From: Macrostomum lignano
Lineage: Eukaryota
Direction: 5' to 3'
Length of the DNA stretch: 64,000 nt
NCBI GenBank assembly: GCA_002269645.1
Contig: NIVC01001263.1
Span: 1-64,000 of the forward strand
The position numbers were made by a program, and so were the translations under genes. The first letter of the stretch is position 1, and each line of letters begins with the position of its first letter. Under the pieces are notes generated by a model. That model was not told the DNA's origin. It saw nothing but the letters and a program-made list of their open reading frames with translations, and did not search any database. This document shows, piece after piece, positions 10,241 to 58,456 of the stretch.

Positions 10241-13200
10241 ATGACGCAAGAATCCAATGGCGCTTCGGCCGCTGACCGCAAAGTGCTGCACCCGTTTGTT
10301 CTGTGGGGCCAGAAGGACCAGAATCTGTACCTCACTGTGCAGCTGCAGGGCGTCACGGACCCCATTATTAACTTGGACGAGGGTCGGCTGACATTCTTTG
10401 CCAAAGGTTATGGTTGTCATGGCAACAATGTGTATCAGTTTGAAATCGATCTGTATCTGCCGGTGCAGCGCAAGCTGAGCTCCTGGAAGGTAATGAAGTA
10501 CAGCTTTCTCGTGCGATTTGTAAATTGCTAATTTTATGGAGCGGTGCAATAAACCTTTAAAGCTGAGATCCTGAGCCTAGGGCCCTAGGCCCCAGCCTGT
10601 AGATTGTAGAATACTCAGCTGCTCGTGCCCGAAGATTTCTGAGGTAGTTGTCATCCCTAGGCTAAGATTTCCTAATTGTTTAACAGTAGAACTACCAAGA
10701 GGGGGGGAAAAATTCCCCCCCCCCTGACAATTTTTTTTGCTGCGCCGGAACGGAGCAACGCAGGCACACGAAATTCAAGAACACGGACTGACTTTTTGTT
10801 GCGCACCTTCTCAAACAAGAATCAAGTCGCCAACCCTCCGGACCGTCGAGATATTCGACGATTCTGCCAGAAGCCGGATTTTTCCCATAAGCGCTAGTGT
10901 ATTCAGTACACCCCTGTGCGCCAATTAGCACTGCGCCTCAGTGCAGCCTTGCCAAGTCTCCAAATTTCATCAGCACGTCGACTAAATGTGTCTGCATCAG
11001 CTCTGACTTCGTTGGTTACTGGCCTTCACCGAGACGGAGCTTCTAGACCTTCAACAGGTGGCACCAGGTGACTATGAACACCTTGATGCGAATTTCTCGA
11101 GTTTCGCCGATCAAGCCTCGACAGTAGGCAAGCCTCAACTGCCGGACACCCTCAGCCATCCCGACACCGTCGGCTCCTTCAACAGGTGGCATCAGGTGAC
11201 TATGGACGTCCTTTTGCAACTATGTCAGGTCTTTCTTATCAAGCTTTAATAATGGGCAAACCTCAACCGACGGACATTGTCAGCTAGTCTCTCAAGCATT
11301 CCGTCATCATCCCGACGCCGTCGGCTCCTTCAACAGATTACACCAGGGGACTATGGACAGCCTGATAAGAATTTCTCTAGTTTTGCCGATCAAGCCTCGA
11401 TAGTGGGCAAAAATCAACTGCTGGACATCCTCAGCTAGTCAGTCAAGCATTCAGCCATCACCCCGACGCCGTCGGCACCTTCAACAGGTGGCACCAGGGG
11501 AGTAAGGACACCTGAGCGTGATTTTTCATCATGCTCTTAACATTTCTGAATCATTATAAAATGAAAAAACGGATTGAATTTACTGGCTTCTTATAAGCAT
11601 AACCCTTTCTGCATAAAAATTGGGTTCAATATTATAGTTGAATAAACTAAACAGCTTTTCGAATAAAATATGTATGTAGCTCGTATGCATAAAAGTATGT
11701 GTAATAATAATATAAATATACAGCAACATGAGTTCAAGCTTAACTATAGCAATGTCCGTGCTTTAAAAATTTTGAGAGCTTCAGAAATGTTAAGAGCATG
11801 ATGAAAAATCACGCTCAGGTGTCCTTACTCCCCTGGTGCCACCTGTTGAAGGTGCCGACGGCGTCGGGGTGATGGCTGAATGCTTGACTGACTAGCTGAG
11901 GATGTCCAGTAGTTGAGATTTGCTCATTATTGAAGCTTGATAAGAAAAACCTGACATATTTGCAACAGGCTGTCCATAGTCACCTGGTGTAATCTGTTGA
12001 AGGAGCCGACGGCGTCGGGATGATGACGGAAGGCTTGAGAGACTAGCTGAGAATGTCCAGCAGTTGATTTTTGCCCACTGTCGAGGCTTGATCGGCGAAA
12101 CTAGAGAAATCCGCATCAGGGTGTCCTTACTCCCCTGGTGCCACCTGTTGAAGGTGCCGACGGCGTCGGGGTGATGGCTAAATGCTTAGGAGACTAGCTG
12201 AGGGTGTCCGGCAGTTGAGGCTTGCCTACTGTCGAGGCTTGATCGGCGAAACTAGAGAAATTCGCATCAGGGTGTCCATAGTCACTTGGTGTCATCTGTT
12301 GAAGGAGCCGACGGCGTCGGGATGATGACGGAATGCTTAGGAGACTAGCTGAAGGTGTCCAGCAGTTGAGGCTTGCCTACTGTCGAGGCTTGATCGGCGA
12401 AACTCGAGAAATTCGCATCAAGGTGTTCATAGTCACCTGGTGCCACCTGTTGAAGGTCTAGAAGCTCCGTCTCGGTGAAGGCCAGTAACCAACGAAGTCA
12501 GAGCTGATGCAGACACATTTAGTCGACGTGCTGATGAAATTTGGAGACTTGGCAAGGCTGCACTGAGGCGCAGTGCTAATTGGCGCACAGGGGTGTACTG
12601 AATACACTAGCGCTTATGGGAAAAATCCGGCTTCTGGCAGAATCGTCGAATATCTCGACGGTCCGGAGGGTTGGCGACTTGATTCTTGTTTGAGAAGGTG
12701 CGCAACAAAAAGTCAGCCCGTGTTCTTGAATTTCGTGTGCCTGCGTTGCTCCGTTCCGGCGCAGCAAAAAAAATTGTCAGGGGGGGGGAATTCCCCCCCC
12801 CCTCTTGGTAGTTCGACGGGCGGAAAAATGGCTTGGTATTCCTACTGTTAAGAATGAGATTACAGTGTTTTTTTCTGAGTGAGCTCTTGGAAGGATTCCG
12901 AGCTGCTCGCGTCACAAAGATGCGATTTTGTCATTGCTCATTCCCTGACTGGGAGGACAAGTGCTTTTCTTGACTGCTTTTTGGATTTTGAAGTGCTGCA
13001 ACTGCCTGTGCGGGGGCGGTTGCTTGCAGCGTGTTTGCAGTAGTTGCAGAAGTATTCTTCCAAAGCGAATATTAGTTACAATATGTTTATGTAGTGTCAG
13101 GAACGGGCTGCATCAATACTTAATCAGCGGTCTGTTTCGTGTGAGGTCGTTTTCAAAGCCGACGTATCATGGTGAATGGCAAATGTTTGCTAAATTAGGC

Positions 13201-36440: not shown

Positions 36441-36891
36441 TCATTTAGGATACCAATTGTGTAGACACCTCTGTGACAGGCGGAATTCGCTGAAACGCAA
36501 ATTACAGTAGCTGACGCTCTCGTGTGTGTTCTCTGAATGATTTTCAGTATCGGCTACTCAGTTCTGCACTTCGGCTGGCATCGCGACTTCCGAATGCTCG
36601 AAAAGTAGTGCTACTTCAGGTGAATTTCATAGCTATGGCCTGCTCAGCTATGCAGTTTAGACTTCTTGATTGAGTTGGTACAGAGCTTGCTGCAATAGAA
36701 ACCGAAACGAAATTCATTTTGTGCTAAACATAGAGCAGCAGACTGTGCAATTCTGCAACACAATAGAGGCCGTGTACAGCTCGCAGAACATATTCTAGCA
36801 TTGTTACACTTTCTACAGACTATATAGGCATATGTTATAAGACTGCAGCAGAGCTCACGGGCTCCTTTAAACACGTATTCAGACATCTGGC

Positions 36892-38309
36892 ATGGCAACC
36901 AGAGGTCAGAAGCAATCGGATGAGCAGCGGCTGACGGAGCTGCACGACAAGCTGTCGCAGTCGAAGCGAGTCCTGGTGCTGACTGGTGCCGGGGTCAGCG
37001 CCGAGTCGGGCATCCCGACCTTCCGTGGCTCCACGGCCGGCAGCTGGCGCGGCTTCACCATCTCGGAGCTGGCCTGCCCGGAGGCCTTCCAGAGAAGCCC
37101 CAGCCAGGTGTGGGAGCTGTACCACTACCGGCGGGAGAAGTCGCTGGCCGCCAAGCCCAACCTCGCCCACGTGGCCATCGCCAAATTCGAGCAATTCTGC
37201 CTTAAGCGCGGCATCGACTTCATGCTGGCCACGCAGAACATCGACCGGCTGCACCAGCGGGCCGGCAGCAGCCGCGTTATCGAGCTGCACCGGAGCCTCT
37301 TCCTGGTGCGCTGCACCGCCTGCGACTCCGTGACTGAAAACTACGACAGCCCGATCTGCGAGGCACTGCGCGGCCGCGGCGACCCCAGCCCGCAGGCCGA
37401 CTCCACACCGATTCCCGAGGACCAGCTGCCCAGGTTACTGCTGACAATTATTTGCTGTCTGTCTGTCTGTCTGTATTAGAGAATACAATCCGGGATTTCA
37501 ATCACTCGAGATCCAAGAAATTCTAATTATCCCAGGATCCCAGGATCGACCATAGGGGATTCCGAAAATTGCCAATCCGGATAGTGCTGACTAGTTATTA
37601 ATAATTAGTAATTGCTAACTAACTTATTTTGTGCTTTGCACTCAATCCACTCAATTCATATTGGATCGGTCTCGTATTTGTAGCTATAAATATCAATTTA
37701 GCATTGCTAATTGACTAAAGAGAGAAGATTACTTGAGTACAATATCCCTAAAACACTAGCTGCTTTTGCTGAAATTGTTAAGGCAGGAAAAGCTTGGCCT
37801 TTCCAAGAATTTAAGTGCAGTGCAATGATTGCACGTTTTAATTCAATTTTTTTACATTTAGATTTCTTTGCGAAGCTTGTTTACAATTATAAAATGACTT
37901 TACAAATTATAATGTGATATGCGAGGCTGTGTGCGTACTCTGAAAATGAGTCTGAATTGTCCGGTTTCCACCACATCTTGCATATCAGATAGATCTCTGC
38001 CTGCCACCTTGCAGGTGCGCTGGCTGCTCTGGCCTGCTGCGCCCCTACGTGGTTTGGTTTGGCGAACCGCTAAACGAGGGCGAACTGAGCAGCGTGCAAG
38101 AGTTCGCCAACATGTCCGACTTCGTCCTGGTGGTTGGCACCAGCAACGCCGTCTACCCGGCCGCCATGATCGCCCCGGATGCGCGCAGGTCCGGCGCCCA
38201 GCTGGCCGAATTCAACCTGGACGCCAGCTGCAGCAGCAGCAACGACGTCAGCTACTTCGTTGCCGGGCCCTGCGGCTCCACTCTGCCCAAGGCCCTGCCC
38301 AGACTGTAG
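36892..38309 (+). CDS. SIRT5: NAD-dependent protein deacylase, class III sirtuin (SIRT5/CobB-like), ~278 aa
   Basis: Exons 36892-37433 and 38015-38309 (phase 2). GAGVSAESGIPTFRG, WELYHYRR (Tyr/Arg succinyl pocket), TQNIDRLH, CTAC...RCAGC zinc site, LRPYVVWFGE, VGTSNAVYPAA, EFN. Confidence 0.93.
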
Positions 38310-38579
38310 CCTGCTAGACTCCCTGAGTCCTGACTTATATTTATACAAATGTTTTAAACTATTGTATTCCCGACGTACTATTCTGACTGTTTGCGAAATA
38401 TATTGTAAGGTAGAGTCTACTCATACGGTAGTCTTCTTAGGACGGAAATATTATTTTAAAAATATTCACATTCTTTTGTAATTTTAAAATCAATTTAAGA
38501 AACTATAGAGAACTTTTTGGCGTTAAAAACAAACATTTAAACAAGCAACTTCAAGGATATATACTAACTTTTTTAACGC

Positions 38580-39541: not shown

Positions 39542-40960
39542 ATGCGGTTCCTGTGCTGCTGCTGCTGCCGGCGGAGAAGCAGCGTCGACGAGAAAAATGC
39601 CGCCAACACCGAGGCCATTGAGAACGCCCGCGCCGCTGACAGCGATGATGACAGCTTGAAGCAGGACTCGCTGGACAACTTCCGCTTTCGGGAAAACGAT
39701 CAAGCAAAGCTTCGCAGTCCCAACTTTCCGCTTCTCAAAGCGGCCGGGAAAAAGTCTAACGCTGGCCTTGGCCGCTCCGATGAAGCCTATTTTGTGCCGT
39801 TCGTTGTGGACTCGCCGGACAAGCCAGATTCGCCGCCCGTCGTTGCGCGCACAGCCGCCGTCTCGACTGCTACTGTGCACGCCAACGCTGTCACTGCTGC
39901 CAGTACTGTTACTAGCGCTGCCGTGCCACCGAAAAGTGAGAAGCCAGTTGCGTCGTCGGATTCTGCCGCGCCATCCAACAACAAAAGCAGCGCCATCACA
40001 AACGCCACTGGTACTACAAGTACAAATACTAGGGCGGCTCCTAGCGAAGTTGCTAGTTGCATCGCCAACGCTCAGCTGGCTTCGGTTGCGTCTGCTGCGG
40101 CTGCTGTCGCGGCTGCCAGGTCTGCAAAACATGCCGCTCCTGAAAGCACCAAAGCGGCCACTGTTACAGCCGCCGCCGCTTTTACTTCTCAAGGGAACGC
40201 CAATGCTGCAACTCGAGAGGCTGCTACTGTTTCAGCGCCACAAAAAGCAGCTAATGTAGCCAAGACCGGTGCCACTGCCACCACCAATGCTACTGCAGCT
40301 CCCAAGACCACCACCAATGCTACTGCAGCTCCCAAGACCATCACCAATGCTACTGCAGCTCCCAAGACCATCACCAATGCCGCTGCAGCTCCCAAGACCA
40401 TCACCAATGCCGCTGCAGCTCCCAAGACCATCACCAATGCCACTGCAGCTCCCAAGACCATCACCAATGCTACTGCGGCTCCCAAGACCATCACCAATGC
40501 CGCTGCAGCTCCCAAGACCATCACCAATGCCGCTGCAGCTCCCAAGACCATCACCAATGCCACTGCAGCTCCCAAGACCACCACCAATGCCGCTGCAGCT
40601 CCCAAGACCATCACCAATGCTACTGCGGCTCCCAAGGCGTCCTCGGAAGCCACTGTGGTTAAAAAGGCAGTCGCTAAGCCCAATACAACCACCGGTACTG
40701 CAGGCGTGAAGGCTGGCACCAATTCAAACGGTGCAGCTGCGGCTGTTTCAAGTGGCAATGCGGAAGCAGCAACTGACGGGACTTCTACTTCAACCCTGCC
40801 AAGAGTCAAGAAGAACGCTGCTCCATCTACTGGAACACTTCCAAGGGCTGCAACCGTTACTGCTCAAGCTAAAGCTGCGCCTTCGAACCAGGGTGCCGCG
40901 CCGAAGACGGCAAAAACGGTGACAGCAGCGAAAGCGCCCTCGGACGGTGCCAAGTCGTGA
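39542..40960 (+). CDS. Orphan 472-aa protein: N-terminal CCCCC-RRR, disordered Ala/Thr-rich body, ~12 x 10-aa APKTITNA(A/T)A repeats
   Basis: Single long ATG ORF that stays open across both non-repetitive flanks and the 30-bp repeats (~40270-40635); acceptor-like CTCTAG immediately before the ATG; no family recognised. Confidence 0.7.
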   Translation: MRFLCCCCCRRRSSVDEKNAANTEAIENARAADSDDDSLKQDSLDNFRFRENDQAKLRSPNFPLLKAAGKKSNAGLGRSDEAYFVPFVVDSPDKPDSPPVVARTAAVSTATVHANAVTAASTVTSAAVPPKSEKPVASSDSAAPSNNKSSAITNATGTTSTNTRAAPSEVASCIANAQLASVASAAAAVAAARSAKHAAPESTKAATVTAAAAFTSQGNANAATREAATVSAPQKAANVAKTGATATTNATAAPKTTTNATAAPKTITNATAAPKTITNAAAAPKTITNAAAAPKTITNATAAPKTITNATAAPKTITNAAAAPKTITNAAAAPKTITNATAAPKTTTNAAAAPKTITNATAAPKASSEATVVKKAVAKPNTTTGTAGVKAGTNSNGAAAAVSSGNAEAATDGTSTSTLPRVKKNAAPSTGTLPRAATVTAQAKAAPSNQGAAPKTAKTVTAAKAPSDGAKS

Positions 40961-41568: not shown

Positions 41569-43557
41569 ATGCTTCTGTTAATTCCCGGTCTGGGCATCTG
41601 GATTGCTGCGGTTGTACATTTGTTAGCAACTGGTAAGTACATGTACTGACTACTTGAGTCTAGCTTTTCTTAGAAAACTAAACAGACTGAGCCGCAACTT
41701 CATCCAGACGTGACTGCCACCCCAACAACCTTGACGATCTCGAGCGGTCAGTTTCTGGAGCCTTCGGGACCGATCCAGCTGGAGGAGTCTGTCAGCTCCG
41801 TGATTGCCGAGACGGTGGTTTCCCTGCGTCTCAGCTGCTTTGTGATGTGCGCGCTGAGGCGCTGCGCCATTCTGGTGCTACGGTCGGGCGGGCTCTGCCA
41901 GCTGATCGTCGTCAACGATGCCTCGGCGACGGCGGGTCCACCTGACAGTCACGTGCCGCGGCTGGTGGGAGCGGAGCCAGGCGATCAGGTGTGGAAGGTG
42001 TCCGACCTGCAGAAGCTGCTAAATGACAGGAAATACGGAAACTTTGTCTTCAAAAGTAAGCGAACGTTTTAGCCGGTGCTGCATCCAGGGACCACTGGCA
42101 GTGGAAGGACGAAACGAGTCAGTGATGGAAATTTGCTTCTTGAGGGCCCAATTTTGCTTTAAAATGCAGTGAAATTCAGTGAGATGGAAACGTGATGTTT
42201 TACTGCACCCAGGGACCAGTAAATGAAAAAACACTTCAAAATTATGAAAGTTTGCTATAATAGGGCCCAATTTTGCTTCGAAATGGAAAAGTAACATTAA
42301 GAAGTCCAGTATTTTTTGCCACTAAATTGGCTGGCTACATCCTCACCTTCTGGGACTTCCGGTATGCGTATTGTAAGGTTGGTGCACGTGTGATCAATTT
42401 GTGATTTACTATACAAGTTTGCTAAAGAAATTTTGTGCCTTCTGCTCTGCGTAGCCTGCATAGCATCAACTGTGGTTTAATAGGATCTGCCAATACATAT
42501 TGGACCGGCTCAAAGAAACAAAGTCGACAATGCACTTCTGACCAAGCACATGTGGTGGCTTCTTTATATGATCTCGAAGTTCAAAGATTTGATTTTAATT
42601 GCAGATTCGAGCACAGGCCCCAACGGCACCATTCAGGCCCTGACGATCTCCCTAACCGGCTGCTATCGAATCGAGGCCTTCGGCGCCAAAGGCGGTACCT
42701 CAGCTCCGACAAGCTCAACGCCTCCGACTGTGACAGCCGGCGGCCTAGGGGCCTTCATGGCGGGAAGCTTCAACCTGACAGCCGGCACCCAGCTGGCCAT
42801 CGTGGTTGGCCAGCGGGGCGGCGACCCGTCGCAGGCGCACGAGAAAGCCGGAGCTGGCGGCGGCGGCGGAAGCTTCGTGTACGTCAGCACTGAGGTCGGC
42901 GACCAGCCGCTGATCATAGCTGGCGGCGGCGGCGGAGGGACCTTTGGGGATGTCGGTGAGCTGGACTGACTGCTAAGCTTATTGACTGCAAGATTAAGGC
43001 ATTGCAAAGTCAGCTGGGGCACTGCTAAATGGCCAAATGATGAAATGATTTTGCATCCGCTGAGCAGGTATTCCCGGCCAGAACGGAACCAGCGGCTCGG
43101 ACACGACGCCCTGCGGCTGCAACTCCCGCTTTTACGGTTTCGGCGGCACCAACGGCCAGCCGGGCATCGTGAACGTCGCCAACGCCTCCAGTGTCTATTA
43201 TTTCGGCGGCGCCGGCGCAGGCTGGCTCGGCCGCGCCCGGACAACCGGCGCTCCGTTGCCGACGGGGACGGCGGCGGCAGCCGCGGCGAGGCCTGGCTGG
43301 GCGGAGTGGCCGGCGTCCTCAACTCCGGCGGCAGCGGTGGCTTCGGCGGAGGCGGCGGCGGCGGCAACGCGTTTGGAGGCAGCGGCGGTGGCGGCGGCTT
43401 CAGCGGGGGCGGCGCCGGCCTGGCCAGCCACCAGCCGGGAGGCGGCGGCGGCTCGTATTGCCATGGCAACAACGGTTGCTATGGCGTCACCGGCGGAAAT
43501 CCGGAAGATCAAGGCAGGGTGGTCGTCCACTTTCTGTCCAAGGCCTCTTGCCACTGA
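41569..43557 (+). CDS. Secreted protein: signal peptide + PAN/apple-like domain + ALK/LTK-type glycine-rich domain, ~417 aa (needs +1 C at 43236-43238)
   Basis: Exons 41569-41632, 41708-42055, 42605-42955, 43068-43557, all phase 1, GT-AG. MLLLIPGLGIWIAAVVHLLAT; C..C....C.......C.L; YRIEAFGAKGG...GGLGA...FNLTAGTQLAIVVGQRG...GGGGGSFV...IIAGGGGG; GGFGGGG, GGGGGFSGG, GGGGGSY. One frameshift in a C3 run. Confidence 0.8.
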
Positions 43558-44969
43558 TTGCCTTGGAACTGTTTGATAGCGGACTTCTTTAGCATCGAAA
43601 CTTTGCAGTAGCTATGACAACTCATTACTTTTTTTATATTTTATACGTTACTTAATGTGTTCTATCTTTTTGACGATTGAATTTGAGTAAAAGCTATTGC
43701 TGTTTACAGTGAGCTCTTGAAGAAAAGAAGCAAAAATATAAGTATGGAAGTACAAAAACTACTATATTTTTGTGTTACCAATGACCACAGACTCAGCAAT
43801 ACCACCATGCTATTTTAGTCGCAATTTGTCAGCGCCGAGGACGCATATCCCCCCCCCTACTATCCTTTAGTAGAGCTCTGGCAGTGGAATCATATGCATG
43901 CTCATATCTGTTTATCTCATAAATATTAAACTTGTATCTGGAACAAAAAAATTGATCCAGCCCCGAGGCAATTAAAATTTGCTTTAATCCTTGAAGTCAG
44001 CCGCTGCCGGCTCTTGTTAGGCGTCTCTCATTATTATATGCGCTCAGGCGGCTCATTAAATGCATTCATCATCAACGCTACTTAAATTCAGTTTATTGAT
44101 TGATTCAGGGGGGGAGGGCGTTGGCAAAGTCAGGTGAGACAGACGGTCATTCTGGGAGCTGAAATTATTATTATTGAGGCAAATTTTAGATATTCCAACT
44201 TTTTACCTGTATTAAATTTTTGAGCTGGCCACTTTATTGACTGTAAATTTTAAAGCTGCATCGGGAACTTTGATTGAAGTTAGCCACGGCCAATAATGAC
44301 AGTCACGTTCTCCGGGGTACTTGCAGTCTCCCCCCCGGATGTCACCAGCTAGGTTGAATATCCGGCCGAAAACTTAAGGTTTGCTTTGCGATATCCAGTT
44401 TGTGATGTCCTGGTAAAAGAAGTATAATGTATTAAAAAATGATTTTTTTGAACAAAAAAGACAAAAAACCTTGGGACAACGACTCTAGGGACTGGAGATC
44501 GCAAAGCAGACTCACATTTGTCTTGCGATCTCCGGCCGGAGACAGCAAGCGCACGGAGATTGCAAAGTCTAACACCGGGGCCTGGCGCAAGAGTCGGAGC
44601 TGCTCCCCCCCCCATATTGGCTCCCATATCTCGGTAGGCTGAGCTCTGCTGATCAATCCTGAAATTCACCTCATATTTGAATGCAAATGTGCAGAAAATA
44701 AAAAGTACTGTATTGTTAAAAACAACAAAATCGATAGACTTAACACTTCAGCTCACGCGCCCATCATGTGAAAATCGGAAATGTGAAAAAAGTGGTTTGT
44801 CTGCAGCGCCGGCTGTAACTCTTGAAATTATTTATGTTGGCATGAAAGCGCAGCCGTGAAAAATTCAACAGAAAAAACCACGGCAACATATCAGCTTTAC
44901 TGCTCCCTATGAGAGTTGCCTCAATGATGGAGGCTGGTTTTTATCGGACTCCCAGAACATTTCAACTCC

Positions 44970-48013: not shown

Positions 48014-48446
48014 ACTACGTATCGTGCAGTTAGAGCTGGGTTTTCAGATGTTTTGACGCAAAAACGCAAATTATACTACTATCTGAAAAATGAAGTAAGT
48101 AGTATACAAAAACGCTATCCTAAGCGTGATGTGGCAATATGTAGTCGTAATAATCCATGTGCTCATATATGTACATTAATTCCATGTTCAATAATCCCTA
48201 TCTATCTCAAAATGGATATGTACATTAATTCCATGTACATTAATCCCTAAATATCTCAAATTGGATATGTACATTAATTCCATGTACATTAATCCATATC
48301 CCAAATTGTCTATCCCCAATTCTATAGTACACTTACATTAATCTACAGTGTCATCCCCAGCGCGCGCGCACCAAAATTACATGTACAATGCTACATGTAC
48401 ACAGAGGTGAGAATTACTAATCTCATCTACTACCAAATGAGTCAAC
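48014..48446 (+). repeat. Left terminal inverted repeat (~430 bp)
   Basis: Near-identical to the reverse complement of 58062-58456 except a ~20-nt indel near 48094-48117 and divergence at the inner end. Confidence 0.95.
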
Positions 48447-48829
48447 TAACAGTGTAGCGCACATCATGTATAAGTATTTACAATGAAGATATATTTACAT
48501 TTAATCAGTAGCATATTACAGGAATCGAGACATGTACAGCATCACCAGCAAATAGAATATACAGAAAATTTTACATTGTTTTTCAATAATTTTCTCTTCA
48601 TAAATGATTTTAAACAGGTTTGACATGCAAAATATGTACAATAGATTTTTACATTGGCAATTTCGCCACACGCAATGCAAAAAATGTTTTATGTACATGA
48701 ATTATATATACAGCAAATAGATTCTGATAAATACAGCAGTATTACAATGCAAATTATGTACAATAAATAGATTTTACTAATTTAATATTGCAAAATGTAC
48801 ATTGAATTGTCAGTTATAATTGGATTACA

Positions 48830-51800
48830 TTATTTAAAGCCATAAGGCCTGCTGCAGGCCCCGTACACGCGCTTCGTCAGGACGCGCTGAAACGTCTTGT
48901 CCATACTAACAGTGTGTATGGTACAAGACGCCTTGTCGCGCCTAAACTGAAGCTGCGGCAGCTGCAGGGAGCCGCCGTGTAGTAGGGCACTGCGCAATTC
49001 ATCGCTGCGTTCCCGAATCTCCGGAGTCAGGCGGATGCCCTTGCATTTCAGGACCTGACTCCGGACACCGGCCGCATCCTCGACAATGTAAGTGTAGAGC
49101 TTGGGCCCTCCACTTACAAAGTCGGTCATCCGGCTGCCTGCGGACACCTCGTCGGTCCACATTCCGAGGCTCGTGCCATGGGGCGGCTCCCATTGGCCCT
49201 CGGAATGCCGGTAAACGACCCTGGGTGTGGGGGGAGAGAGATAATTACTTCCACATGCCAACTATTCAATTCTAAAAGAATTTTTCCAATGCAATACTTA
49301 CGAGTCAGTGTCGCAGTAAATGGCCCGTTCGCCGAGCCCCTCCAAGGCCTCGTACAGGCGCAGCCGGGCCTGCGTGGTTGTAAAGACTCCAATTGGCACA
49401 TTAGAGTACCGGAACGGCCGCTGATTAAAGTAGCGGTGCCGGTACTCTAGCAGTATAAACTCGCTGCCAATCGGCTCGCAGGCCTTGACTTTGAGGTTGG
49501 GGTCGGTCAGCCGGGCGAGCCAGTCCTCGTAGCTGGATACAATTTCGGTCGATGTCAGGTCGTCACGCTGACAAAATTTGCCCCAGAGCCTGTGTGTTGT
49601 GAAAAGAAGTGCTACTATTAGTAGAAGAAGAAAATCGTTTTAAAAACAGAATTTATAATTACTTACGAATTCAAAAAGATTTTCGCTACCAAGCGAAGTC
49701 CTGGGTTGGGCTCGACCTTGTCCAGCGTGACGCCCTCCTTTGCAAAGAAATCGGCAATGTAGGCGGCCTTGTCTTCATCCGACATGCCGGGGGAGCCGCT
49801 CGACTCAGCCTTCAGCTTGAGGAAGGTGCTAACATAGTCACTGAACAGGCCGGTCCGCTTCTCTGTCCAGTAGGCTAGCGCGTGCACCACCTGCAGCCGG
49901 TAGCCCAACTGGAAGGCCTTCCGCAGCTCCGGCGTTGCCCAGGTACCAGTCAGTGCCCGCTGCTCGTCTGAGTGGTCACAATCGTCGCCACACTGCTGCT
50001 CCATACAGGTGCGGCAAAGCCCAAAAAAGAGCTTCTTTTGCACTCTGTACGGCAGCAGCGGAATGTGCAAATTTGACGGCGGCAACACAGTCACTTTGGC
50101 AATACCAAAGTAACTAGCCAGCGCGTCAGAATCTAGCACTTGCGGCGTCGGATGCTGCACCGGGTGGCCAATCGGGTACGGGTCCTTTGACTGCACCGTC
50201 GGGTACAGAGAGACCTGCCAGTTGAAATAAAACATTATTTTCATAAACTGTATTTTTGCAAAATATTCTACTATATTAGTAGTATCACTACTCACCACAT
50301 CCCGATATTTGAGAGTCTCAGTCTCGCTGGCCACAGCATGCGGGATAAAACACTCTACGCGGCCGCCGTAGAGCGCATCCTCCATCTTGAGCGGAGCGCG
50401 CAGATGTGCAGTTGCGGCAATGAAATCGGCCTGCGACGCCAATACAGTGTCGTATTCGTGCTCCCAAATGACTCGAACACTGTAATTGTGCCGCTCCAAC
50501 TCGCGAGTGAACCACTCGGTCTCGTGGCGGATATGGCTCAGAGGCTGCCGTTTGAGCGGGTGGACAGCATCCTGATCAGGCATGCACTGCTCGCAGCCAT
50601 GGTAGAAACATCCATGAAACTGCAAGACAGTGTTGCTCGCCTCATCAAAACCATCCACCTTGCGGCCGAGAATGACAGCCTCGCCGCCAGTAGAGTCGCA
50701 CGTGCGCAGCCGCCCGCCAAATTCGGTGGCATTCAAATAAGTCAGCCACTTGCGCGCCTTGAACGATTGCTGGTCAGCCTGCCGGGCAATCACGCCGACC
50801 GAGTTGGGCTCCATAAACCGGGTGGTGAAAACGGCCATTGCCAAACTGGCAATCGTATTGGCCTGAACAAATGGTTCCAGGCCGTCGCAAATTTCACCAA
50901 TTATTGCCCTGTACTTGATGCAGCCCTCGCGAAGCAGGACTGTGTCGCTCAAACAATAATCGAGATATTCCCGATTAAAGTTGAACAACTCGCCCTGTCG
51001 CGAGGCTAGCCAAGCACAGATTGAGTCATAGTCCTTGTTTGCTTTGCCGCCATAATACTCAATGGCCGGGTAGGAGCCCACGTAGTTCCAATTAGCCGGC
51101 TTGTTGAACTCGTGGGGAAACGTCCCCTTGGCCAGCTTTGTGTCAGCGAGCCCCAGCGCTTTTGGGAATTGCGCAAGCGGGATTGGTATAAAATTTAACG
51201 AATCTTTAAATACCAATTTATCCACCGTCATGCACATTAGCCGGCTGCCCTGGAACAGCACTTGGGGCCGCTTCTTGGCCAGGCCGTTGAGCAGAGCGCC
51301 AAGCAATAAAAACGAATCGTAGCCTGATGCGTTGTGCGCTACAACAATGGCGCCGCCTCGGAATGTGGTGCTCAGCCAGGTGAAAAACGCATTCAGCGAG
51401 GCAGGGCCCACAGCCACAAAATCGGCCATTTGGCAGGCGCAGTCTGAGTGGCTGACGCAATTGGAGAATTCCTTCCCCAGATCGCGGCCAGTCAGACAAT
51501 TGGCGGCGCTATGCAGGCCATTGCAGAGGCGGCAAGTCTCGCGCGGAAATGCCCGGCCGGAGCAGGTCTCGCAGCACGTGACGGCAGTCACCAGATGCAC
51601 GTGATGCTGCTTCTCATCATCCGTGTACGTTTCCGTATCGTAGAACACGTACGGCATAGTTGAAGCTTTCACTTTGGGAGCCTTGACGAAGCACAAATGC
51701 GAGCCGGCCTCGTCGTACTGTTTACACAGCGGGCACTTGACGTGGCCGCATTTGTGCTCCGGCTCCCTTTGGCCGACCTTTAGCTCCTCGCAATACCCGC

Positions 51801-53039
51801 AATTGGGGCAGACACGGGTTGAGCTGCAGCGTGACCGCCCCGCCCGGTTCTTTTGGCGGTGGTTGTCGAAGCACTGCTGATTGTAGCACTTGAGGCCACA
51901 ATCAGCGCAGCGTTTGTAGTCACGCTGCAGGCTTTTGCAGTCGGTGCCGGGCACTTTGCACTGAGGGCAGGTGTTGGCACACTTGTGTTCTCCAGACACG
52001 CAGTCGTACGGCTGCTGGCAGCGGTCGCAGTAGCGGCGGGCACCGAAAAATGACGGCACCTTGCACACCGCGTTAAAGTGCTCGCCAATTAGGTGCAAAT
52101 TCAGCACTTCGCGGCCGGGCAGGGCGTACACACACGTATTGCCCTCCTCTGCGCTGTATACCCGGACGCCGAAATCTCGGCCGGGCGACTGGGCGTTCAG
52201 GACCGCGAGCAGTTGGGGGAGCACGTCAACCCCGAAAGGCCCGGCCTGTGCAATGGTTGATAAAGACTAAAACATTTGTATATTAATAAAAATGCAAATT
52301 AAAATGTGCAAGAATATTTTTACTCACCGAATACAATTTGGCGGCAATCTGAAGCTCCCCAGTCAGCTTCTTCTGCATTGGGGAGTCGGCCTTGATCGTT
52401 TGCCACGTGTTCTTAGTGATGACCTTAGCCTCCAGATCTGCGAAAGCCTTGGCCACCACCAGCGCCCTGATGAGGCAACGTTTGTCGCTGTTGGCGATGA
52501 CGACGTAGTTGCGGCCTGTCGAATGCCTGGACTGGATGTGGCGCTCCGCCGCATCTAGGCTGCCGCAGCCGCCCCGCGGGACCCAGGCCTTGTCAAAAAC
52601 AATTTAAAGTTGTTGCCCAAGACGCTGGAGTCCGACTGCAGCACCTTGTTTATATGCTTGAAAACAAGCTCTGCAGTGAAGCGGCTGCGGCGGACGGGTG
52701 GGACATTGATGGTCAACATCATATTGTCCGCCGTCAGCTTAGCTGCGACGAAATCATCTGCGTGCAAGTCACTGCAGAGTGCCGAAATTATATCCGCAAA
52801 CGTGGCGCGAATATCGGTAGTACTCGTATTTGTGAAGGCTACTTCATACTCACACCCTTTTGCCTTAAATTTTGGCAGGGCCTTTGCCCCGCCAAGACGC
52901 GCAATAAAGCCTAAAAAAAATTTGGGGTTTGAAATTAGAATTGCGAGAGGCGGCGGCAGGTGTATGACTCATAAAATCAACTCCTTACCATCGCCTTCGA
53001 CAGTGTCGGGCTGGGGCGGGGGTTGAAATTGAGCCAAAT
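48830..53039 (-). CDS. polB: Protein-primed family B DNA polymerase (Polinton-type), >=1270 aa, intron-containing; 5' exon unresolved; one frameshift
   Basis: Exons (minus strand): 53039-52989, 52910-52328 (needs +1 nt in the A5 run at 52594-52598), 52245-50296, 50214-49667, 49589-49302, 49220-48830. The phases fit only when spliced. Exo I FYDTET, Exo II HNASGYD, Exo III YCLSD, motif A DV|VSLYP, motif B KIFLNS|LWGKF, motif C YCDTDS|, then GPKLY, KCKG, KR..PYG. Confidence 0.95.
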
Positions 53040-53975
53040 CTGCAATAAAAATGTGCATGGTGACTAAAATTCTGACCGCTTGGAATTTTACAACTGTCAA
53101 AAATTTTTGATTGATTGCCTGCAGCAGCAGCAATTTTATCGCCCCACCCCAAGCAACAAAAATCGGCGAGTTGTAAAAACCCCAACTCGGCACGTTCCGA
53201 CACGTAGCAACAAAAGAAATGTGGGGTTGATTGACCCCCGCTTCGAATTTTAGGCTGTCAAAAATGTTTGATTGATGACCCTGATAACACAGATCCTGCC
53301 GCAGCAGCCATTGTAAAACCCCTATCAGCACGTGCCTCCATTGTGCCTCCTTGACACCTAGCAACAATACTGCGCGGCCGCTTTTGGATTTTAAAGCTGT
53401 CTGATTAATAACCCTCACCGTAGCAGCCATTGCTGCCAAAACCCCATACAATTGCAGCGGTGATTACATCATCATGCCCAAAAATCGGGGGGTTGATTTA
53501 ATCACTGCGCCGCTAGAATACCTGCCGCCGTGGTGATTACATCATCATGCTGAGCCCAAAAATCGGGGGGGTTGATTTTATCACTGCCGCTTGCCCGCCC
53601 CCCGCTGAGTCACGCGCGCGCCGCAGGATTGCTGTTTTTGCTTCTCTAGTCACATAACCCCTGAAATTTTATGACTATCCTCTACAGGCATTATCTGGCT
53701 ATACTGCTTCTGCGACTATTCTCTAAAACTCTGTTATTTCAACAGGCCTGAATTTGAGAAATCCAACTTCAACATCTATGTCAAGAGGAAATTCAGAAAT
53801 TTTAACCCAAAATGAATGTTAAAGATGAAAAGCTGTGGCTTCAAAGAAAGCCCATATTTCAACAAGCGTGTAGTTTGCAAATCCCACAAATGCTAAAGCA
53901 ATTATACAGCCCTATTTTTCTGAATTTAGATTTTGCAACTGCTAAAAGCATAGTTTTACGCGCGCAGAGACTCAC

Positions 53976-54239
53976 CTAGCGGGCGTCCTCTCTTTGCGGC
54001 CGGAGGCTGATGCTGATGCTGGTGTGATTGTGGCTGCTGCTGCTGCTGTGGTGTGTGTGTGTCTTCGGCTGGGCGGGTTCCCTCATTGCACCCACTCAGG
54101 GTGCGTGCACTTCAGGAACCCTAGCACCTAGCTGCTGTGGTTGCTGCTGCTGCTGTGGTTGCTGCTGCTGCCTGGATGGGCCGGCCTGCCCCCACAATGC
54201 CGATATGGCCGCTTCCGCAGCAGAGCGCTTCGATGCCAT
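53976..54239 (-). CDS. Candidate first exon of polB (MASKRSAA...polyQ...PPAAKRGRPL), needing a further -1 correction near 54113
   Basis: ATG 54239 lies ~90 nt downstream of a minus-strand TATA; strong donor CTAG|GTGAGT at 53975 is phase 1, matching the exon starting at 53039; NLS-like AKRGRP. The two halves are in different frames. Confidence 0.4.
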
Positions 54240-54326
54240 TTCGATGGGATGGTAGATGGTTGTTGATGCTGCTGATGCTGGTGCGATTGTGGCTGCTGCG
54301 GAAGCGGCGGTGATGCTCCTACAATC

Positions 54327-54606
54327 TCCTTTATATACCCCTGCAGGAAGGGGATGCTGCAAAAGCAGAGAGCGCGTGTGCATTATTTCTCTTTCCCCTG
54401 AACTGCATTTGCAAATTAGTGTACACTCAGACCCCAACTTGGTATAGAAAAGATGGGGTCTGAAAATACCCCATCATTTGCGTTCTCATACGGATTGTAA
54501 TTGGATGTGAGTGCATCTAACCAACCGGTAGTGCTGTAGGAACGAAAAATGCAGCCCGCAGCCTCACCTCCTCAGAGTACAGTTGCTTTCGCGGGTATAT
54601 AAAGGA
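54327..54606. promoter_or_regulatory. Divergent promoter with two identical 14-bp GGGTATATAAAGGA TATA motifs facing outward
   Basis: Minus-strand copy 54327-54340, plus-strand copy 54593-54606, each ~90 nt upstream of an ATG (54239 minus, 54694 plus). Confidence 0.75.
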
Positions 54607-54693
54607 CCATGCTGCTGAGAGATTTTTCAGAATTCTCGCTCGCTCGCTCCGACACTCTTTGCAACAGCTCTATCTCCGTGAAACTCTGTCAAA

Positions 54694-55500
54694 ATGTCTA
54701 TTCCACTTGTTGACAACTATGTGGTGCGCAAGCCCACATTCGATACTGATCGAGAACTGATTGAGATTCGGCGTTTCTACACTGACAAGAACGGCAACTA
54801 CAAGCACGGTTTCCCCGGTGTGTTTCTGACTCGCATCGAGTGGCAGCATCTCAAACGGGCGTGGCCGATTATTGAGTCTCTGCACGTCCTCGACTCTCGT
54901 CATAAGCGGTTTCAACTGGGTGAGAGCGGCCGCAAGATTCTGGAAGTGAAAAACAGCCAGATTTGGCTGCATCGCATCAACCCGGCCGGCTGCGATGAGG
55001 GCGAGCGTTGGAAATATTCCATCAAGTTCACCCCTGAATTGTGGACTGCTCTGATGGATGCTGACGTTGATTCGCTGTTTGCCTCGCAGTCGCCGCCGCC
55101 GCCCAAGACGGCTTCGGAGCCATCATCGCGGTTCAACAGCTGCAGCAGCAGCAATGATGGTGACGGCAATGGCAGCCGCCGCCGCAGTGCTGGCACCCCG
55201 CCACCGATTGAAATGCAGCCGCAGGTGAAGAAGCTTTCTACGACTGACGGCGGCAGCGGCAGCGGCAGCGGCTACAAGTGGTGGCACTCGTATCCCCCGG
55301 ACTCGACTGAGCTCGAGAGCTGGGCTGCTGGCCTTACTGATGAACAGCTTTTCAAGACCCCGGCCCATCAGATTGGGCCCCACGAGCCGGCCTTTGCTGC
55401 CTGGGCCGCTGTGATCAAGGAGCAGAACAAGCGAATTAAGCTAATCTACAGCAGCGACAAGGCCAAACTGCAGCAGCTGCCTACAATGCGTGTCGAGTGA
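54694..55500 (+). CDS. PC4/p15-like ssDNA-binding protein with probably two PC4 repeats and a low-complexity tail, 268 aa
   Basis: LIEIRRFYTDKNGNYKHGFPGVFLTRIEWQHLK resembles the PC4 core IDIREYW....GE.KPG.KGISL..EQW..LK; second degenerate unit FQLG...SIKFTPELWTAL. Confidence 0.75.
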   Translation: MSIPLVDNYVVRKPTFDTDRELIEIRRFYTDKNGNYKHGFPGVFLTRIEWQHLKRAWPIIESLHVLDSRHKRFQLGESGRKILEVKNSQIWLHRINPAGCDEGERWKYSIKFTPELWTALMDADVDSLFASQSPPPPKTASEPSSRFNSCSSSNDGDGNGSRRRSAGTPPPIEMQPQVKKLSTTDGGSGSGSGYKWWHSYPPDSTELESWAAGLTDEQLFKTPAHQIGPHEPAFAAWAAVIKEQNKRIKLIYSSDKAKLQQLPTMRVE

Positions 55501-55644
55501 AAATGATTAAGACAATTGCTAAAAAGACTCTTTTTGTGTGGGCTGTATGCTTTTTGTGTGTGAATATTCATATTCGTAATGTGTGGGTTGTATAATCATT
55601 GCTTTTGTGGGAATATATGGTTTGTATAATAATAACTCTACTGT

Positions 55645-55895
55645 AGAACCTTGTTTATGTGCTTGAAAACAAGCTCTGCAGTGAAGCGGCTGCGGCGCGG
55701 ACGGGCGGCACGTTAATAGTGAGCAACATGTTGTTGGCCGTTAGTTTGGCTGAGATGAAATCGTTAGCGTGCAGGTCAGCGCAGAGGGTTGTTATTATTT
55801 TCGCAAATGTGTCTCGACATCGACAATATCCGCTGTGAAGGCAACTTCATATTCGTAGCCTTTTGCTTTAAATTTTGGCAGGGCCTTTGATGCTG
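55645..55895 (-). pseudogene. Frameshifted paralogous fragment of the polB N-terminal exon
   Basis: Aligns to ~52640-52885 in the same orientation: KALPKFKAKGYEYEVAFT...LCADLHANDFISAKLTANNMLLTINVPPVR..SRFTAELVFKHINKVLQ*. Confidence 0.85.
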
Positions 55896-56278
55896 ATTAA
55901 CTCTCAATTGTATAATTTTTACTTGTGGGAATTTGTGTTTCTGCGATTATATCAACTCTAATAATGTGAAAAGCATCTTTTGAATAAACTGGCACTGACA
56001 ATAACATCTCTGGAATAAAAATGGTCTTATTTCATTTGTTTTGAAATTGAAAATAACCGAGACTTTGAAAATTTTATTATTAAAACAGACATAGCTAGCT
56101 GTTGAGTCAGACCAACTCGCTGGCGGGGCTGGGCTGGTGTTTGGGCAGAGTTGCTTGCTTGCAGGCTGGCGGAGCCAATGGGAGGCCTCACAAAATCACT
56201 ATAAAAACGAGACCCCTGCGAGACTGAAAATTTGTGATCAAACTCATCTACTCACCTACTCGCCTAAACTTGATTACC

Positions 56279-57043
56279 ATGAACAGCGACCGCATCAACA
56301 GCAGCAGCAGTAGCATCAGTGTTGAAGACGAGCCGCCGCAGTTAGTTGCGGTGGCGGTAGCCCTGCGTTGCGGCAAAACCCCTTCAATCCTATGGTGCGG
56401 GGTTGGGGGTGGCCGAGTAGGTCGTAACCTGTCACATCGTTATATCACCCGACCGGTTTTAAGCCTGTCAAACAAATCTGGCAGCAACGACAGCGACAGC
56501 AGCAGCAGCAACGACCGTCAGGCCACGAGACATCAACCCTCTGGCTCTGAAATCAGCAGCAGCAGCAATCACAGCAGCAGCAGTAGTAGCAGCAGTCACA
56601 TCAACAGCAGCCGCAGCGACAGCAGCAGTATGAAGCCGAAGAAGAAGAAGAGCAGCCGCTTAGGTATTAATTTGGCCCCTCGGATGGGGCTGCATAGTGC
56701 GGTTGCTGCTAGTGAAAAGGCTGCCACTGCTGACGAGGCCGCATACCAAGAATTTTTGCGGCAATGGCGCCGCGAGCCCGACTTGGACATGGTAAATAAT
56801 TGCATTTTATCCGAAAACTTTTCATTTTGCAACTAATTGCTGATTCAAAATTTCAATGCATTATAGCGGGAAACTTTTCCCACCCATTCCCTTTTCTAGC
56901 TAGCAGACTATTGTTTTGGCACCCCCTCTGAAGAGAGAGCGTATTACACGGCGGTGAAGGAGCGGCAGGTGTATGAGGCTGATTTACATTATGAAACAGC
57001 CGCAGAATTGGACAGCCTGTTCCCCGGCTCGGGGCTGTGTTGA
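56279..57043 (+). CDS. Orphan two-exon gene in the element, Ser-rich with a KPKKKK NLS-like motif, ~218 aa
   Basis: Exons 56279-56791 and 56900-57043 (ATG|GTAAAT...TTTTCTAG|, 108-nt intron, phase 0, second exon open for 47 codons); TATAAAA at ~56200. Confidence 0.55.
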
Positions 57044-57374
57044 CATTTTAATGTTGTGTCTGCACGCATTTTTATTTTCATGCACCTTGTACATATCTTG
57101 TTTTTATCAAGTGTTGTGTCTGCACTCAATCTAAATTTTCATGCACCCATAGTATATATCTCAACTTGCTATAAATGTTGTGTATGCACACTTACGTTAT
57201 CCACATGCACATTCTTTTCAAATAAATTGTTTTGCAAAATTTAAATATTGCGTTGAGATTTTTACCATTTTTTCGAGTAATGATATTTAGAATGAAAAAC
57301 TATAAACCATTCCGTGTGAAAACACTGTGACTGATTATAACCGCAAACTCACCAATTCCAGCTACGTCATCATC

Positions 57375-57836
57375 ATGGCTGCTTTAAAGGTGTCGCTGCT
57401 GACTGAAGGTGCTCGCCCGCCGGCTCGCCAGACAATCGGTTCTGTTGGCTACGATCTCTTTGCCTCTGAGGATGCTGTTGTCTGGGCCGGGTCGGTTGCG
57501 CAGGTGCCTCTCGGAATTTCAATCCAACCGCCTGATGGGACCTACGCTCGGATTGCCGGCCGGTCTGGGCTGGCGTTGCGCAAGTCTATACAAGTGGGCG
57601 CCGGCGTGATCGACCCTGACTATACTGGAGAATTGACTGTGGTGATATTTAATCATGGCAGTGCGGACTGGTTCATAACTCGGGGCTACCGTATCCCTCA
57701 AATAGTTTTGGAGCGTGTAATGATTGCTCCCGTAGTTGTAAGGGATCTCTATAGAGGGAATGGCGATGAGGAGGTTGCTTCCAGCAGCCGCTCAATTCGC
57801 GGTGCAGGAGGGTTTGGTAGTACAGGCTATAATTAA
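57375..57836 (+). CDS. dut: Trimeric dUTP pyrophosphatase, 153 aa
   Basis: All five motifs present: VGYDL, GRSGLA, GVIDPDYTGE, RIPQ, RGAGGFGSTG. Confidence 0.96.
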   Translation: MAALKVSLLTEGARPPARQTIGSVGYDLFASEDAVVWAGSVAQVPLGISIQPPDGTYARIAGRSGLALRKSIQVGAGVIDPDYTGELTVVIFNHGSADWFITRGYRIPQIVLERVMIAPVVVRDLYRGNGDEEVASSSRSIRGAGGFGSTGYN

Positions 57837-58061
57837 GTCTCAACTTGCTGTTGTCTCCTTACTGTTTTTGCTCTCTTTTTCAATTATTGAAATGAAAATA
57901 TACGCTTTTCCAATGTGAAAACTATATGAATACAGTCTTTTTCAATAGAATCTTGATTTGTTACTCTACTAAAGGTAGTAGTGTAATCAGCTACATGTAG
58001 GTTTTGAATAATTGACATATAAATAGGAATATGTATATAACGTGGTTTTTAAAACTTGAAT

Positions 58062-58456
58062 GTTGACTCATTTGGATGAGATTGTAGATGTAGTAGGGTT
58101 TCGAGTTGTAATTTTGGTGTGCGCGCGCTGGGGATGACACTGTAGATTAATACACATGTACATATAGAATTGGGGATAGACAATTTGGGATATGGATTAA
58201 TGTACATGGAATTAATGTACATATCCAATTTGAGATATTTAGGGATTAATGTACATGGAATTAATGTACATATCCATTTTGAGATAGATAGGGATTATTG
58301 AACATGGAATCATGTACATATATGAGCACATGGATTATTACGACTACATATTGCCACATCACGCTTAGGAAGGATTCATTTTTCAGATAGTAGTATAATT
58401 TGCGTTTTTTGCGTCAAAACATCTGAAAACCCAGCTCTAACTGCACGATACGTAGT
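58062..58456 (-). repeat. Right terminal inverted repeat (~395 bp)
   Basis: See left TIR. Confidence 0.95.

Follow-up and report, generated by a model that had tools for sequence, protein, structure and literature searches.

A probable reduced Polinton lineage in the flatworm Macrostomum lignano, with a protein-primed DNA polymerase gene interrupted by old introns

A locus in the flatworm Macrostomum lignano raises the question of how a virus-type DNA polymerase interrupted by introns at its catalytic motifs can be made, and of what kind of element would carry such a gene. The locus lies on a stretch of 64,000 nucleotides (GenBank assembly GCA_002269645.1, contig NIVC01001263.1, positions 1 to 64,000 of the forward strand; hereafter the window), where an element bounded by terminal inverted repeats harbours the polymerase gene on the minus strand (Table 1). 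An earlier account made from the letters alone, referred to here as the sequence-only reading, had described a polymerase split by five uniform spliceosomal introns and had drawn from it a long nuclear residence, an activity dependent on splicing and a possible on/off switch. Taking the follow-up analysis as a whole, the element can be assigned with moderate confidence to a reduced lineage of Polintons/Mavericks, about 9-10 kb in size, that would synthesise itself, would no longer integrate or package itself, and would rely on a constitutively spliced polymerase. The larger point, which the sequence-only reading overlooked, is that the carrier is without integrase or capsid genes and that the window copy is itself broken.

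The five introns that had been proposed between 49221 and 52988 are all real, with GT..AG ends and the lengths listed in Table 1, and the donor pattern GT(A/G)AG likewise holds, the first donor being GTAAG as are two others. The count was incomplete: further upstream lie a micro-exon, another intron (the sixth, 53975-53040) and a short first exon, all of which had been missed. The features expected of spliceosomal (U2-type) introns were found, namely GT..AG ends, a pyrimidine tract, frames that close and, for four of the six introns, removal deduced from sibling transcripts; all donors are of strong consensus. The guanine-cytosine content of the five short introns is 0.24-0.40 (four at 0.24-0.38, the first at 0.40), as against 0.54-0.59 in the exons. 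These introns are mutually unlike, nine of ten pairs being at chance level and one at 0.017 uncorrected, and the hallmark of introners, likeness between introns beyond chance, was not found in these pairwise comparisons, which did not extend to a genome-wide search for intron copies. After splicing, motifs A, B and C are present, and the product is a protein-primed family B polymerase (PF03175, E 1e-27), the best match of solved structure being the phi29 polymerase (E 2.5e-5). A profile of relatives matches the Vsr endonuclease 1VSR weakly (E 0.011) over the VSR-like insert. In a protein search, 39 of the 40 matches were Macrostomum lignano entries named DNA polymerase or polyprotein by their source.

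It had also been claimed that the exon phases only close when spliced. When translated separately, the exons do fit end to end on a profile built from 110 outgroup polymerases, leaving neither a gap nor an overlap at any of the three motif introns (profile positions 842/843, 1027/1029 and 1123/1125); the claim is incomplete as regards the exon 52910-52328, which itself changes frame and has no single frame open throughout in the window copy. The length of this exon keeps one frame in 15 of 17 aligned close siblings, and both of its halves share one frame in all four distant siblings. The first exon is open in four of five close siblings examined, with 42-44 codons ending at a phase-1 donor, and in five of five distant siblings it consists of 20 codons followed by a phase-1 donor. 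Because of the frame change between 52606 and 52557 and the stop in exon 1 at 54098, the window copy is a broken member of its family, with two lesions that are due to mutation or read error.

The large exon has at least 72 matches in the same genome (68 of 233 candidates were scored), which fall into a close group at 92-98% identity, a distant group at about 56-65% and one copy at 79%; the two subfamilies share 62% amino-acid identity. A search with a relative of the next exon, in which all 149 candidates were scored, gave 100 matches made up of the close group, the distant group and a single intronless fossil. GT..AG ends are retained in 101 of 107 intron instances of the close group (26 loci). 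The comparison of intron positions among related polymerases, which had been set beforehand as a check, found the introns at the same nucleotide and phase as in the window in 12 copies at 57-79% identity, and the two upstream introns are likewise present in the distant subfamily. The description of the introns as uniform applies to the window's own subfamily but not to the distant one, where lengths run from 61 to 341 nt (98-341, 61-116, 66-88 and 65-114 nt for the four downstream introns); intron sequences have diverged beyond alignment between the subfamilies. Ratios of nonsynonymous to synonymous substitution (dN/dS) over the large exon, 0.11 in 28 pairs among eight close copies and 0.12 in six pairs among four distant ones, indicate that the polymerase is under purifying selection. 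Many copies in the family are truncated or broken.

In a FastTree phylogeny (345-348 columns) the two subfamilies group together in a single, well-supported clade that excludes the fossil and every outgroup. The introns appear to be old, having been gained before the two subfamilies split, and the conclusion that they are spliceosomal, old and kept by selection is supported, so that production of the enzyme would depend on host splicing. The fossil (C234, L051:4190-6417) is a single AT-rich, decayed and intronless polymerase of the same broad type, and its position in the tree rules it out as sister of the intron-bearing clade.

Four sequencing runs were examined as contigs; the runs are unlabelled and the RNA nature of run X18 was guessed. 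Splicing was deduced from the lengths and depths of contig pieces, the intron joints not being among the 15 joints listed. A 452-nt contig of X18 places 288 letters on 48932-49219 and 164 on the exon above, both at a depth of 40.7, and thereby skips the motif C intron exactly, while the motif B intron is skipped by a contig of 508 nt, in which 354 letters end at 49666 and the remaining 154 lie on the next exon. Two further contigs come to an end at the donor of the motif A intron and the acceptor of the intron of 82 nt, with bin depths that fit uncovered introns. The two upstream introns showed neither coverage nor a joint, which counts neither for nor against their splicing. The X18 contigs differ from the window by 5-10% and therefore stem from sibling copies, in which splicing of four introns is deduced. 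Run X17 includes one contig inside the motif C intron, which may be unspliced RNA or DNA. In the DNA run the introns are covered, and no skipping joint occurs among the joints listed. Run X11 was set aside as RNA evidence because its joints are common with the DNA run and its non-coding parts are evenly covered.

The siblings of the window element show what the carrier is. Paired arms, ACTAC..GTAGT ends and a perfect 6-bp duplication, different in each case, were found in nine of ten siblings examined, one being not settled. Sibling sizes are 8.8-9.7 kb, apart from one of 13.8 kb that is enlarged by an inserted long interspersed element (LINE), and the terminal inverted repeats of the window element and its siblings measure about 0.3-1.4 kb. 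The element ends, ACTACG or ACTACT, hold a repeated triplet and are none of the three Polinton end motifs listed in PMC8097293, which are (AGT)2, (AG)3 or (AC)3A. Neither the window element nor the polymerase-bearing siblings examined gave any match to integrase (rve), capsid or protease; Pfam searches, like tblastn searches with capsid, protease and six unnamed proteins of full Polintons, a query set without ATPase and minor capsid, gave none inside polymerase-bearing copies. The smallest copy is too short to house capsid-type genes, and the copy on C1247 consists of arm, polymerase, PC4-like gene and arm, with no room for an integrase. The PC4-like gene occupies the same divergent position in five of five distant copies, and the window protein is 44% identical to that of the distant subfamily and 28% to the PC4 of a full Polinton in the genome. 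With sizes of 8.8-10.4 kb and six introns, these elements depart from the Polinton standard of 15-20 kb or more and intronless core genes. Within copies of the distant group the arms are 95-100% alike and between copies 64-82%, as expected if replication keeps arms matched; close-group copies appear to be mosaics, because their arms are only 80-100% alike within copies.

Ordinary Polintons are present in the same genome. They measure 16-17.5 kb and carry an intronless polymerase of 1125-1478 codons, integrase, capsid, protease and PC4, and their ends are AGTAG..CTACT in all five with ends determined (eight examined); one Polinton integrase has at least 116 matches in the genome. These full Polintons are likely helpers that would supply integrase in trans, the different end motif being the weak link of the trans-integration step. 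In the working that is proposed, host RNA polymerase II would transcribe the polymerase gene and the spliceosome would constitutively remove the six old introns, as deduced for four of them in siblings. The protein-primed polymerase would then copy a linear form that has been freed, starting at the repeated terminal triplets, in keeping with what is known of the family, with the PC4-like protein probably assisting as a single-strand binding protein. New copies are inserted with a 6-bp duplication, most likely through the integrase of full Polintons acting in trans. Selection on the polymerase would persist because ACTAC-type ends depend on it. Since the element would work in the manner of a Polinton and gave no match for integrase or capsid, it is filed as a Polinton-derived, self-synthesising and helper-dependent element.

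The element's ends and 6-bp duplications are also carried by palindromes 4-9 kb in length, non-coding and nearly perfect, which occur at five loci and represent three distinct insertions; they look like copy-back products of terminal replication and may ride on the polymerase. In PMC8097293, jumping back from a repeated terminal triplet is described for protein-primed copying. Palindromes with little or no coding content are seen at L193, L194, L195, L196, L197, L211 and L214 (G000 C982, C125, C1379, C4191, C900, C440 and C261), and palindrome arms reach 4.2 kb at >98% identity. At several loci a small element and a full Polinton lie next to each other or one within the other, the nesting going in both directions (L045/L046 on C1412, L207 on C4099, L205 on C382, L216 on C291), and within this nesting set a 2-kb capsid-region fragment lies inside a decayed small element. 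Integrases near ACTAC arms on C4099, C382 and C1412 were considered as the element's own and rejected, since they belong to nested or adjacent Polintons of the AGTAG type. P-element (THAP transposase) insertions lie inside dUTPase-bearing palindromic derivatives at approximately L192:2766-6261 (C2132) and at L206:4100-6988 (C2539); the transposase of the C2132 copy likewise failed as the element's own, being that of a nested P element with its own inverted ends and an 8-bp duplication.

Several other explanations bear on this evidence. Regulated splicing, chiefly retention of the motif A intron as a tissue switch or as the source of a dominant-negative form, had been suggested because this intron of 81 nt is a multiple of three and stop-free in the window copy, which is correct; the germline intron of the P element offers a parallel. 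The same state occurs in 13 of 23 close copies but has been lost in the other ten, and only one of the 12 distant copies has a length divisible by three, with two stops in it, for which reason the retention switch is left unsupported. The X17 contig inside the motif C intron would suit regulation, whereas strong consensus donors throughout and the skipping of the motif A intron in X18, where depth arithmetic leaves no contig over it, do not. The best remaining support for a regulatory role is the low variation of the motif A and 82-nt introns (50295-50215 and 52327-52246), whose interiors vary at 0.024 and 0.034 against 0.10-0.26 at neighbouring fourfold-degenerate sites in 13 close copies, a four- to eight-fold difference. 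The introns are probably not a switch, and regulated splicing as an account of the locus is unlikely. A family of domesticated host genes spread by segmental duplication would fit the intron-rich structure, the TATA-like box, the purifying selection and the transcripts; it is contradicted by the distinct duplications, each copy having its own flanks and its own 6-bp duplication, and by the many truncated or broken copies, so that it is scarcely credible.

The elements could instead have arisen by ordinary deletion, as non-autonomous derivatives of a full Polinton that bears introns and its own integrase and is unseen or recently lost; the signal of selection would then be inherited from it. 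The right arms of close copies do differ and carry decayed pieces, searches scored the best candidates only, and among 29 long outgroup loci that have a polymerase of this type, nine show an integrase nearby. However, the reduced layout, a polymerase facing away from PC4 within about 9 kb, is found in both subfamilies, which share 62% identity; of the 12 arm pairs seen for the distant subfamily, 11 span 7.2-9.1 kb and one 11.3 kb, none reaching 15-20 kb; the 149 scored exon candidates led only to the two subfamilies and the one fossil; and the integrases beside ACTAC arms are those of AGTAG-type Polintons. Deletion derivatives are a minority expectation. Insertion by a different DDE enzyme, one able to use AC..GT ends and to leave 6-bp duplications, is very unlikely: the end motif differs from that of all five full Polintons with determined ends and P-element transposase genes lie inside two copies, yet the P element on C2132 is a nested insertion, and fish Mavericks with an AC-type end motif and a 6-bp duplication are described in PMC8097293. 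The preferred reading, a reduced and self-synthesising Polinton lineage, also has points that weigh against it. The PC4-like gene is absent from five of five close siblings examined, and a helper integrase would have to accept other ends, those of full Polintons being AGTAG..CTACT. Splicing was deduced from lengths and depths in a run taken to be RNA and in copies 5-10% unlike the window, and the low variation of the two introns in the close subfamily is unexplained by plain neutral introns. No autonomous ACTAC-ended element was found in the 47 stretches screened, an incomplete census in which the 40 best matches per arm were scored and the far ends of the elements on nine contigs lay outside the stretches examined; because of this coverage, such an element may exist unseen.

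The placement of the introns is a matter of its own. In the outgroup profile, the windows where the motif A, B and C introns sit rank in the top 0.1-4% for conservation, and the chance of three of six introns falling at such windows is P about 0.001 with 7- or 11-residue windows and 0.02 with 17, in a post hoc test; mean conservation over five introns gives P 0.011-0.16, likewise post hoc. The introns thus strike the catalytic motifs more than expected by chance, as judged after the fact. Of 89 outgroup loci, 78 have an unbroken motif A, 65 an unbroken motif B and 56 an unbroken motif C, most others being diverged or uncovered; the choice of loci favours intronless genes, and counts that took in 18 loci matching only the VSR-like domain were set aside. 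Only one outgroup locus stands as intron-bearing. This is L163 (metagenome contig Ga0316188_10035860), which has two introns. One, of 129 nt (1553-1681), sits at the same motif B nucleotide as the window's 49666-49590, although the serine codon there belongs to the other family; the second, of 145 nt (L163:1966-2110), lies in motif C, 4 nt upstream of the window's 49301-49221 site. Its protein-primed polymerase groups outside the flatworm clade, which points to parallel gain. Seven other outgroup loci (L104, L106, L108, L117, L145, L154 and L170) show eight AT-rich breaks of 63-300 nt at other places, and these failed as introns in the test of GT..AG ends and frame closing. The motif C intron pattern has five matches in viral contigs, none of them in a polymerase. 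Intein sites in family B polymerases form a parallel, on which the literature search gave no paper. Introns at catalytic motifs may persist or be regained repeatedly because only exact removal would be tolerated there. In PMC2814812 a preference for conserved sites is reported for inteins as well as group I introns, and none was found for spliceosomal introns.

Beyond the reading preferred here, a bolder proposal can be put forward tentatively, as something possible rather than probable. It holds that these elements represent a distinct Polinton lifestyle, a nuclear replicon that synthesises itself without integrating itself (polymerase and single-strand binding protein between inverted repeats), uses the integrase of full Polintons and supports palindromic parasites, and also that spliceosomal introns repeatedly land or survive in the catalytic motifs of protein-primed polymerases. 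Intron gain may let elements escape the silencing of intronless transcripts, an idea that stems from the HUSH literature, and introns may hide such elements from virus screens based on open reading frames. The locus would offer a virus-derived replicase adapting to the life of a nuclear gene while still mobile. It would also set self-synthesis apart from self-integration within a single genome that holds possible helpers, and would provide a clear example in which to ask why catalytic motifs should collect spliceosomal introns.

Table 1. Features of the element and its polymerase gene, in window positions.
Feature	Positions	Strand	Remarks
Whole element	48014..58456		10,443 bp; ends 5'-ACTACG...CGTAGT-3'; lies in a G run, six G on each side being an ambiguous target duplication
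Left terminal inverted repeat	48014..48330	+	Inner limit approximate; in their first 250 nt the arms are 90% alike
Final polymerase exon, which holds the stop codon	48830..49220	-	
Motif C intron	49221..49301	-	81 nt, phase 2 in last Ser codon; GT..AG in 22/22 close copies; skipped in run X18
Exon from motif B to motif C	49302..49589	-	One run X17 contig is exactly this exon
Motif B intron	49590..49666	-	77 nt, phase 2 in Ser codon; skipped in run X18; same nucleotide as an intron of the unrelated L163
Exon from motif A to motif B	49667..50214	-	
Motif A intron	50215..50295	-	81 nt, phase 0; no in-frame stop in window copy; skipped in run X18 by depth arithmetic
Large exon	50296..52245	-	650 codons that include a Cys-rich region, the exonuclease motifs, a VSR-like insert and the beginning of motif A; PF03175 E 1e-27
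Polymerase intron	52246..52327	-	82 nt, phase 0; GT..AG in 21/21 close copies; RNA-like contig ends at acceptor
N-terminal-region exon	52328..52910	-	Frame shift between 52606 and 52557 in window copy (mutation or read error)
Polymerase intron	52911..52988	-	78 nt, phase 1; GT..AG in 16/18 close copies; same site in 9 distant copies
Polymerase micro-exon	52989..53039	-	51 nt; similar micro-exon in 5/5 distant siblings
Sixth (upstream) polymerase intron	53040..53975	-	936 nt, GT..AG, phase 1
Polymerase exon 1	53976..54239	-	Start codon 54239; longer than sibling exons; stop at 54098
Polymerase TATA-like box	54330..54337	-	A sibling has the motif too, upstream of its start; putative function
PC4-like gene, intronless	54694..55500	+	Putative single-stranded DNA binding protein; PF02229 at cut-off; divergent from polymerase
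Partial, diverged duplicate of the N-terminal polymerase exon, within the right arm	55640..55889	-	76-82% to siblings
Low-complexity Ser-rich frame	56228..56836	+	Only a below-cut-off compositional match, no convincing family
dUTPase gene, intronless, accessory	57306..57836	+	PF00692 E 3e-28; absent from polymerase-bearing siblings examined
Right terminal inverted repeat	58163..58456	-	Inner limit approximate

Elsewhere in the window, a host sirtuin gene (Sir2 family, E 1e-27) with two coding exons lies at 36871-38310 and a host gene with an ALK/LTK glycine-rich domain and several introns at 41569-43560. An Ala/Thr-rich open frame with a 30-nt tandem repeat and no Pfam match is found at 39543-40960. 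At 10702-12802 lies a foldback of 2.1 kb, whose 455-nt arms are 98% alike and which contains repeats of 151 nt internally.

The literature bears out the suspicion of the sequence-only reading that an intron-rich polymerase is atypical of Polintons. Intact vertebrate Mavericks are described as intronless in PMC8097293, in agreement with Kapitonov and Jurka (2006), and in 10.1101/2022.07.12.499685 it is the cargo genes that have introns, the core genes being intronless. Other reports touch the subject from the side: PMC12220804 is concerned, in the text available, with group I introns only, and that of 10.64898/2026.07.28.741278 holds nothing relevant. No description of Polintons in this flatworm was found in the literature, nor one of fixed spliceosomal introns in an animal Polinton polymerase or of an integrase-less, polymerase-bearing family, although Repbase-type reports, subscription papers and preprint supplements may hold cases. 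The VSR-bearing pPolB2 polymerases have been surveyed among integrase-linked genes (Jeong et al., 2023; 10.1101/2023.08.22.554363), and such a survey, as described, would not list elements like these because of that restriction. Since core genes are held to be intronless and only integrase-linked polymerases were kept, a family of some ninety copies would be invisible on both counts. Taken by themselves, the introns are less rare than the sequence-only reading supposed; what merits attention is the reduced, selected, intron-bearing replicon, together with the repeated intron strikes on catalytic motifs.

When compared to known systems, the element is most readily set beside animal Polintons/Mavericks (polintoviruses, adintovirus-like), with which it shares a PF03175 polymerase with a putative VSR-like insert, terminal inverted repeats, a repeated terminal triplet, a 6-bp duplication, a PC4-like gene and a dUTPase, going by the features given in PMC8097293 and 10.1101/2023.08.22.554363. 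It is unlike them in its size of about 9-10 kb, in the lack of integrase, capsid and protease, in its six polymerase introns and in ACTAC rather than AGTAG ends. Capsid-less Polintons, as outlined by Koonin, Krupovic and Yutin (PMC4405056), have similarly lost virion genes and live as transposons, but the loss described there is of the capsid only, whereas here integrase is absent too and the polymerase is under selection. The fungal linear pPolB plasmids treated in the same work are also minimal replicons that have kept a protein-primed polymerase and lost the morphogenetic module; they are cytoplasmic and have their own transcription enzymes, while the present element is chromosomal, uses nuclear splicing and has a 6-bp duplication. 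Spliceosomal introns inside Polinton-like elements have a precedent in dinoflagellate Polinton-like viruses, where they are reported as introners, young transposon copies (10.1101/2025.03.18.643946), in contrast to the five short introns here, which are unlike one another and diverged beyond alignment between subfamilies. Lastly, as intervening sequences at the most conserved, catalytic positions, the motif introns resemble inteins as well as group I introns in the terms of PMC2814812, from which they are set apart by a length below 130 nt and by having neither a homing endonuclease nor self-splicing features.

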